A stretch of 64,000 nucleotides of DNA, taken from NCBI GenBank assembly GCA_963737445.1, contig CAVTSO010000025.1, positions 116,870-180,869 of the forward strand. Direction: 5' to 3'. This DNA comes from an uncultured Actinomycetes bacterium. Lineage in GTDB: Bacteria > Actinomycetota > Thermoleophilia > Gaiellales > JAICJC01. Position numbers and translations under genes: made by a program. This document shows, one piece after another, positions 12,377-13,307 of this stretch (the first letter of the stretch is position 1; the number at the start of each line of letters is the position of its first letter). The notes beneath the pieces were generated by a model, which saw only the letters and a list, made by a program, of their open reading frames with translations, was not told where the DNA came from and made no database searches.

Positions 12377-13144
12377 ATGAGCGCAGACGTGACAGCTGAG
12401 TCCGTGGACATCGCGGCGGCTGACGGCACTGCGGATGCGATCTTCGTGCGACCGGCGGTAGACGGGCCGCATCCGGGCGTGCTGCTGTACATGGATGCCT
12501 ACGGAATCCGGCCCGCGCTCGAGGCGCACGCCGCGCGGCTGGCCGCGGGCGGCTACTGCGTGCTGGTGCCAAACGTGTTCTACCGGCACGGCCGCTCACC
12601 GGTGCTCGAGAACCTCGAACAACTGATGCAGTCGGAGGACCGCTCGGCTTTGTTCGCGCAGCTCGGCCCCAAGATCCAGGCGGTCACGCCGGAGGCTTCG
12701 AACGCCGATGCCAACGCCTGGCTGGGGTTCCTGGACGATCGCGCGGAGGTGCGCGACGGCCCGATCGGCACGGTCGGCTACTGCATGGGCGGACGCTTCA
12801 GCCTCCGCTTGGCGGGAGAGTTCCCCGAGGCGGTGGCGGCGGCCGCCAGCTTCCACGGCGCCGGCATGGCCACCGACCAGCCTGACAGCCCGCACCTGGC
12901 CGCCGTGCACGCGACCGGCGAGCTCTACATCGGCCACGCGGACAACGACCGGGGGATGGGCCCGGAGCAGATGGGGCGGCTGACACGGGCGCTGGCCGAG
13001 GCTCACGTGCGCCACACCGCGGAGCTGTACGTGGGTTCGCTGCACGGCTGGACCCAGACCGACGCGCAGGTCTACGACGAGGCCGCCACCGAGCGGCACT
13101 GGTCACGACTGCTGGAGCTGTTCGGCCGCGTGCTTTCGCCCTGA
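12377..13144 (+). CDS. dienelactone hydrolase family protein
   Basis: Inner part of track ORF 12272..13144, with the ATG at 12377 (MSADVTAESVDI). DLH-like, with the nucleophile motif GYCMGG and a C-terminal HGW. Confidence 0.75.
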   Translation: MSADVTAESVDIAAADGTADAIFVRPAVDGPHPGVLLYMDAYGIRPALEAHAARLAAGGYCVLVPNVFYRHGRSPVLENLEQLMQSEDRSALFAQLGPKIQAVTPEASNADANAWLGFLDDRAEVRDGPIGTVGYCMGGRFSLRLAGEFPEAVAAAASFHGAGMATDQPDSPHLAAVHATGELYIGHADNDRGMGPEQMGRLTRALAEAHVRHTAELYVGSLHGWTQTDAQVYDEAATERHWSRLLELFGRVLSP

Positions 13145-13307
13145 TGATTGATTCCACGGGCTGCGTGGCTCTGGGGCTGGTGCGAGCCGCCCCAGACGCC
13201 ACGATCGCCCTTGAACAGGCTTCATTCAGCCTGCCCTGCGGTCGATCCCGTCGTCTGGAACGCCTCGTCCTGCGCCCATAGCCGCGGATCTCGTGGAATC
13301 AACCATC
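13143..13307. mobile_element. miniature TIR-bounded non-coding element, copy B (MITE-like, longer variant)
   Basis: ATGATTGATTCCACG at 13144-13158 pairs with CGTGGAATCAACCAT at 13292-13306 (14/15 as an inverted repeat). About 40 nt on the left and 25 nt on the right resemble copy A. The left end overlaps the TGA of the hydrolase gene, and the right end abuts the stop at 13307-13309 of the sigma pseudogene. Confidence 0.6.

Follow-up and report, generated by a model that had tools for sequence, protein, structure and literature searches.

A MITE with IS982-type ends, very probably inserted at CTAG where converging genes shared their stop codons, and its family in uncultured soil Thermoleophilia

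The Correia elements of Neisseria and the ERIC/IRU and YPAL repeats of enterobacteria are imperfect palindromes of 100-170 bp with inverted ends. They occupy short AT-containing intergenic targets, are co-transcribed with their neighbours and can fold as long RNA hairpins, and effects on RNA processing or stability have been documented for them. To our knowledge, no cognate transposase has been established for any of these repeats. Other short elements share their ends with an insertion sequence. MITEPsy1 of Pseudomonas syringae is a 100-nt MITE with ends in common with ISPsy2, and CTAG is duplicated at its insertions (PMC3189936). IS5 likewise has a CTAG target that becomes duplicated (PMC11894529), and the target of IS5 and MITEPsy1 is described as CTAG or YTAA with a 4-bp duplication (PMC3189936, PMC11894529). 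The Cardinium endosymbiont of Oedothorax gibbosus, according to the passages of the paper that deal with it, carries an IS982-derived MITE of ~240 bp whose ends resemble those of ISCca4 and which intact parental copies presumably mobilise in trans; these passages mention neither a hairpin nor a target site (PMC9769881).

The element analysed here, copy B, lies in a window of 64 kb, which is the whole stretch of DNA examined. Like the Cardinium MITE, as far as the latter is described in those passages, it is short and non-coding, its inverted repeats match IS982 and it has many copies (PMC9769881). On the other hand, the host there belongs to the Bacteroidota, the sequence is another one, and the length is ~240 bp as against 165 bp. 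The family described here differs further in that it occurs across a class of free-living soil Actinomycetota and consists of several constant-length subfamilies. It resembles IS5 and MITEPsy1 in that a CTAG target is duplicated upon insertion; unlike in those systems, the CTAG target at 70% GC coincides with stop codons, the transposase is of the IS982 type with IS5 models remaining below their cut-off, and the ends are unrelated. In its palindromic form the element recalls Correia, ERIC/IRU and YPAL, with which it has no sequence relation, and here a partner insertion sequence is evident. In our literature search, neither a paper on inverted repeats or insertion sequences of Thermoleophilia nor one that connects IS982 with CTAG came up. 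The pair of MITE and IS982 element is previously unnamed, and it is widespread in uncultured soil Thermoleophilia (Gaiellales, Solirubrobacterales).

Two copies with matching ends in the window

Copy B occupies positions 13143-13307 and is a non-coding imperfect palindrome of 165 nt, to which no strand is assigned. These bounds hold if the duplicated target is TA; if it is CTAG, the element proper is 13144-13306, and the sequence is identical in both cases. The left TIR (13143-13158, plus strand) reads GATGATTGATTCCACG, a sequence that recurs unchanged at either end of the full-length IS982-family elements described below. The right TIR (13292-13307, minus strand) reads GATGGTTGATTCCACG on the minus strand, and the element as a whole runs GATGATTGATTCCACG ... 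CGTGGAATCAACCATC across the window. An A-to-G change at position 5 of the right TIR, common to the whole B clade, gives a G.U pair on the minus strand. Overall, the 16-nt ends of B are complementary at 15 of 16 positions, compared with 16 of 16 in copy A, the second member of the family in the window. The 14/15 inverted repeat named in the original prediction lies where it had been placed, with ATGATTGATTCCACG at 13144-13158 (plus strand) and its inverted partner, carrying one mismatch, at 13292-13306. With at most one mismatch allowed, this 15-mer has five matches in the window against 0.68 expected, and four of these occurrences bound elements, two at B and two at A. None of 100 shuffles reached five matches, which excludes chance for the shared termini in the window.

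The inverted repeat of B extends past its ends, the arms 13143-13210 and 13240-13307 being 72% complementary over 68 nt. Folding of both strands, which had been proposed as a check, gave one long hairpin on each, at -93.8 kcal/mol (z -8.4) on the plus strand and -106.4 kcal/mol (z -10.7) on the minus strand. The G+C content of the window is ~70% throughout. B contains no ORF of its own; those that reach into it either run on from the genes next to it or are antisense frames. A family profile (nhmmer) matched 13143-13307 of the window with E = 1.8e-42. Rfam 15 returned no match in the whole window at the gathering score, and with permissive thresholds over 9500-13500 nothing overlapped B or A at E up to 5.

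B fills the space between two converging genes. The dienelactone hydrolase gene (12377-13144, plus strand, 255 aa), whose homologues carry Pfam PF01738 and whose best matches are 92% identical, has its stop codon within the left junction: the TGA at 13142-13144 shares the first two bases of B, exactly the 2 nt that the element had been predicted to supply. The ECF-type sigma-factor gene (13307-14480, minus strand) has its stop codon within the right junction. Its C-terminal frame stops at the TAG 13309-13307 (minus strand) and shares the last base of B, which agrees with the predicted position of the right TIR at this stop codon. The gene is also disrupted, as had been noticed from the sequence. 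An intact orthologue of 391 aa carries Sigma70_r2, Sigma70_r4_2 and DUF6596, whereas the copy in the window is frameshifted near 13902 by a 1-nt insertion (GCCCGCCG versus GCCTG-CG in the related contig L133), and two frames result. The frameshift could reflect a real pseudogene or a sequencing error.

Both junctions carry a remnant of CTAG. The left target-duplication copy (13141-13143, plus strand) was CTAG before it lost the A and now reads CTG, which together with the next base of the element still provides a stop codon (TGA) for the hydrolase. The right copy (13307-13310, plus strand) reads CTAC, its fourth base changed from G. The complement of this CTAC gives the TAG stop of the sigma-factor gene, and the changed fourth base is not used by the stop. 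With slashes between target copies and element, the filled site in the window reads ...ttcgccCTG/ATGATT...AACCAT/CTACtccacc...

Copy A (9665-9752, 88 nt, no strand assigned) has the same ends as B, both perfect (9666-9680 and 9737-9751), and it also folds as a hairpin on a smaller scale than B. Its left flank CTAG (9662-9665) includes the TAG stop of an M24 peptidase gene, and its right flank has decayed to CCTG (9752-9755). Peptidase genes lie on both sides of A, and neither of the two proteins had an exact match on record. The ends of A and B align, and B is longer by 77 nt (165 versus 88 nt), close to the interior difference of about 80 nt that had been estimated. The proposal to align the two copies and decide whether A is an internal-deletion derivative of B led elsewhere. 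A is identical to B at only 73 of 88 positions, whereas its reverse complement matches a subfamily represented by the loci L117, L040 and L024 at 81 of 88 positions with one internal gap of 78 nt. Judged by these alignments, A is a 78-nt internal-deletion derivative of this sister subfamily and not of B. Likewise, B, which had been taken for a longer variant, has by its length the canonical full size of the family (164-167 nt). It shares 96.4% identity with its subfamily consensus and 90-94% with copies from five other MAGs; the subfamily is carried by Gaiellales-type MAGs. No further degenerate copies of the family were found in the 64-kb window beyond A and B.

The family in other genomes and its presumed partner insertion sequence

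We scanned one genome per species with the 18-mer GATGATTGATTCCACGRG and obtained at least 116 stretches. More than 100 loci bear the family ends, almost all of them in MAGs labelled Gaiellales, Solirubrobacterales, Thermoleophilaceae or unclassified Actinomycetota. The conservation of these ends bears out the central claim of the original prediction, namely that A and B are miniature TIR elements belonging to one family. Among the matches listed, the G+C content was at least 0.62 in 109 of 116 loci, and CTA preceded 80 of 117 exact ends. Nine of the 116 genome matches, in unrelated taxa, had neither a CTA flank nor a partner end and were set aside as chance. A scan of viral contigs with a 16-mer gave 16 single unpaired matches, also taken as chance.

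Pairing of the inverted ends in the listed loci revealed two sharp size classes. The short class of 164-167 bp comprises at least 31 copies, B included, and the long class of 983-996 bp comprises at least 23 copies, plus one composite of 1951 bp. A few copies have odd sizes (41-121, 217 and 223 bp), and copy A with its 88 bp falls here. In the sampled loci, the paired short copies number at least 39; the window holds two copies (A and B). The 16-nt TIRs of the short class are identical to those of the 983-996-bp insertion sequence (IS). The long class has a single frame of ~300 codons, and a frame of at least 296 codons is open in 22 of 23 copies among the matches listed. We oriented the IS copies by similarity to the transposase, because the longest ORF misleads where high GC creates long antisense frames.

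The transposase of the long class scored 157.3 bits against the NCBIfam IS982 model NF033520 (cut-off 130) and matched Pfam DDE_Tnp_1 at 3e-19. By contrast, the IS5 models gave 44 bits (cut-off 110), and IS5, IS4 and IS1182 were all far below cut-off. The residues D127 (LLVDSTP), D210 (IIADKGY) and E252 (RQRIESIF) are invariant in 18 distinct transposase sequences and form a predicted DDE triad, assigned by position and motif only. The partner element thus combines an IS982 model score above the cut-off with a size of ~1 kb, a single ORF, inverted repeats and this predicted triad. B, for its part, is short and non-coding and has TIRs, a target duplication, dispersed copies with presence/absence differences, and ends shared with an IS, as is typical of MITEs. 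On these sequence features, B is a full-size MITE whose family ends match an IS982-family insertion sequence. Similarity between MITE and IS stops ~28 nt into one end and ~18 nt into the opposite one, with none in the interior, and an origin of the MITE by deletion of that IS is therefore no more than a possibility. A search of the 64-kb window revealed no IS982-type transposase.

Several individual copies deserve mention. The 166-nt copies L024:4683-4848 and L089:1927-2092 (MFD04967.bin.2.87; Gaiellales SMAG_U11270) share the left flank ttggatccta and have near-identical right flanks, apparently representing one orthologous insertion inherited vertically, which implies that some copies are older than species splits. 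At L047:1056-3006, a stretch of 1951 bp, twice the IS length, lies between perfect family ends with CTAG flanks; it may consist of two adjacent or nested IS copies, or of an IS with extra DNA. L121:1697-1861 is a genuine 165-nt copy with a CTA flank on a 1.77-Mb contig of 69% G+C labelled 'uncultured Bifidobacteriaceae', and either this taxonomic label is wrong or the family extends beyond Thermoleophilia. Within the first ~30 nt of the upstream end of the IS (e.g., L105:1154-1185 and L085), the CCACGG of the TIR can pair with a nearby downstream CCGTGG. This motif, GATGATTGATTCCACGG-N5/6-CCGTGG, also opens the better-folding strand of the B-clade MITEs. In practical terms, copies of the family could serve as presence/absence markers between close lineages, and annotation of MAGs would benefit from their recognition, since assemblies break at repeats of this kind and ORFs are spuriously extended by them.

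CTAG targets, empty sites and stop codons

Among the matches listed, the arrangement ...cta/GATGATT...AATCATC/tag... recurs in 23 of 24 long copies and in the majority of short ones, which indicates that the site before insertion was CTAG and that CTAG is present on both sides afterwards. As CTAG is palindromic, a 4-bp duplication with element ends A...T and a 2-bp duplication of TA with ends G...C yield the same sequence. For an empty-site comparison we used seven metagenome contigs (L133-L139) with a hydrolase protein 86-92% identical to that in the window; one of them, L133, is syntenic across the whole region, with DNA 92-94% identical. B is absent from all seven, and the hydrolase and sigma-factor genes have four bases in common where they meet. 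These bases are CTAG in L135, L136, L138 and L139, TTAG in L133 and L134, and GTAG in L137, so that a plus-strand TAG ends the hydrolase and a minus-strand TAG or TAA ends the sigma factor. These empty sites read ...cagccCTAGccgg... The site of copy A is also empty in both relatives that cover the locus, L133 and L139, where it reads ...cgtccCTAGcccggg... The filled junctions of A and B were also looked for in two metagenome scans, with no match. As far as these contigs and scans show, A and B are insertions specific to this lineage. The target duplication of B itself is reconstructed from the family flanks together with the empty sites, each of its two copies having apparently decayed by one base.

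Taken as a whole, these observations make it very likely that B is a MITE with IS982-type ends that inserted at a CTAG where converging genes shared their stop codons. An IS982-family DDE transposase, supplied in trans, would bind both ends of B, excise or copy the element and then integrate it at the palindromic CTAG, leaving CTAG on both sides. Mobilisation of the MITE in trans by that transposase is what we infer from the shared ends. The target for B would have been a single (C/T)TAG at which the hydrolase and sigma-factor stops overlapped. Its duplication would have given each converging gene a stop codon of its own, and the insertion would for this reason have cost nothing. The ends of the element read TAG-A-TGA-T-TGA, and a stop codon stays in place even where the site has decayed, as at the left end of B (CTAG to CTG). 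The junction cTAGaTGAtTGA, present at 13141-13154 and 13296-13310 and in all family copies, has stops in three frames within 12 nt on both strands, which means that a decayed duplicated site still leaves a stop codon (B, L117, L128). At the left end of B and at L117, L128, L040 and L057, the duplicated TAG has decayed and the next TGA is used as the gene stop. We had considered an intact duplicated site as a proxy for the age of a copy, and rejected it because use as a stop codon itself preserves the site.

How much of the placement at gene ends follows from the target alone? Base composition predicts 174 occurrences of CTAG in the window, where there are 19, and no other tetramer in its composition class is as rare. 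Across 831 kb of loci that bear the family, CTAG free of elements occurs 286 times against 2323 expected, a depletion of ~8-fold. Since TAG can be read from CTAG on either strand and the tetramer is rare at 70% GC, many of the available targets are stop codons. Using three criteria for calling a gene stop, which give the ranges below, we found that 24-32% of free CTAG sites coincide with the stop codon that ends a long ORF rich in GC3. Full-length IS copies were at stop codons at this background rate (23-32%). By contrast, 68-76% of the MITE copies lay there, an excess with p ~5e-7 against the free sites and p ~0.002 against the IS. Placement at stop codons is thus attributed to target specificity with its high baseline plus a bias in retention or selection, and both contribute. 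The extra bias of the MITEs towards gene ends would be explained most simply by the survival of old, harmless insertions. Among the matches listed, genes arrive from both sides at 12 of 39 MITE copies, so the convergent setting of A and B is common in the family without being the rule. The insertion-site preference that had been suggested from the two copies in the window is real, but it is a preference for CTAG and not for 3' ends as such. In a high-GC genome, an element that seeks CTAG is an element that seeks stop codons, and CTAG targeting explains the stop-to-stop position of the two copies without special biology.

Constraint on the hairpin and competing readings

Conserved length, a covarying hairpin and strand asymmetry are neither needed for nor explained by simple mobilisation in trans. 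Following the suggestion to look for covariation across genomic copies, we aligned the 19 copies of the B clade on the consensus fold of their better-folding strand, which has 58 pairs. Changes on both sides were present in 14 of the 58 pairs. Paired cells amounted to 96.4%, compared with 33-40% in controls in which the partners were slid by 1-3 columns, and the covariation score was reached by none of 500 shuffles. This is suggestive and not conclusive, because the sequences compared share ancestry and a few splits between subfamilies account for the double changes. Furthermore, in every full-size copy one strand folds better than the other by 10-48 kcal/mol, an asymmetry that arises because transition-type mispairs are G.U on the better strand; in B itself it is weak (4 G.T versus 6 A.C). 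At least five sequence subfamilies share the 165-167 nt length and the shape. The constraint on the hairpin may reflect a requirement of transposition, a role at the RNA level, or selection against perfect DNA palindromes.

One reading that accepts the MITE origin adds that the host now retains B for a function. The hairpin of ~65 bp, transcribed at the 3' end of either converging gene or of both, would act as a factor-independent terminator or as an mRNA-protecting 3' stem-loop, and copies at gene ends would be positively selected. The compensatory changes speak for it, with the caveat about subfamily splits just given, as do the retention of one length by the subfamilies and the better folding of one strand, which a constraint on an RNA-like single strand would predict. 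The excess of MITEs at stop codons over both free CTAG and IS copies also points this way, though purifying selection alone would produce an enrichment of old insertions at gene ends. On the other hand, a scan for intrinsic terminators over 12900-13600 on both strands gave 0 sites, and the sequence after the stem, CTACTCC on the plus strand and CAGGGCG on the minus strand, contains no T/U tract. A promoter scan around B found nothing. The better-folding strand shows no bias towards the sense of the gene whose stop codon it abuts (10 sense versus 13 antisense), the asymmetry of B is weak as noted, and seven relatives do without the element at this locus. We therefore regard retention for such a function as unlikely. 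Of the terminator-like role raised in the original prediction, the covarying hairpin and the excess at stop codons beyond target availability stand, whereas the U-tract and the orientation bias expected of it are missing. A more general and equally tentative version treats the family as more than selfish DNA, namely as a mobile 3'-end cassette, a length-invariant, covarying, strand-asymmetric hairpin of ~65 bp with three-frame stops at both ends. If this were true, Thermoleophilia would retain the cassette at gene ends, where it would stop transcription in both directions or form a stem-loop that stabilises RNA, and this would explain why copies are on stops so much more often than their targets are, and a function at the RNA level would make it a mobile 3'-end module in Actinomycetota.

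The remaining readings concern mobility itself. The very stable fold on both strands and the exact position between two genes would also suit a conserved intergenic spacer or a locus-specific regulatory RNA that does not move. Against this, the site is empty in seven relatives whose genes overlap by 4 nt, the family occurs at dozens of unrelated loci and in other genomes, and Rfam has no match at gathering or permissive thresholds. The empty orthologous sites and the distribution over many loci and genomes refute this reading, to which we attach practically no probability. In the same vein, termini without conservation across genomes, or the same spacer in relatives, had been named in advance as grounds for abandoning the element; what we found were ends shared by more than 100 loci and seven empty sites. 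A hairpin that forms the whole element and folds in a strand-specific manner also recalls single-strand transposition, in which B would have moved as ssDNA by a tyrosine (HUH/Y1) transposase of the kind associated with REP/RAYT or IS200/IS605 palindromes. Elements of the IS200/IS605 type have asymmetric ends and insert 3' of a short target, which they are not known to duplicate, and REPs measure ~20-40 nt and have a GTAG head. The family described here has symmetric true TIRs and the same tetranucleotide on both flanks, and among the matches listed the sole coding elements with the ends of B carry an IS982-family DDE transposase, which makes this route highly improbable. Nor was a Y1 gene noticed beside any of the copies.

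Two other differences from L133 lie close to B. A stretch of ~2 kb at 14891-16898 of the window is absent from L133 and contains an ORF for an IS110-family DEDD transposase (15749-16522, minus strand; Pfam PF01548, 1.6e-18); it is a second insertion sequence near B, unrelated to it. A further ~1.2 kb at 17139-18318 is unaligned to L133, with positions 5559-5689 of L133 matched on both sides, and the ORF within it (17234-18259, plus strand) carries a PD40 (WD40-like beta-propeller) repeat.
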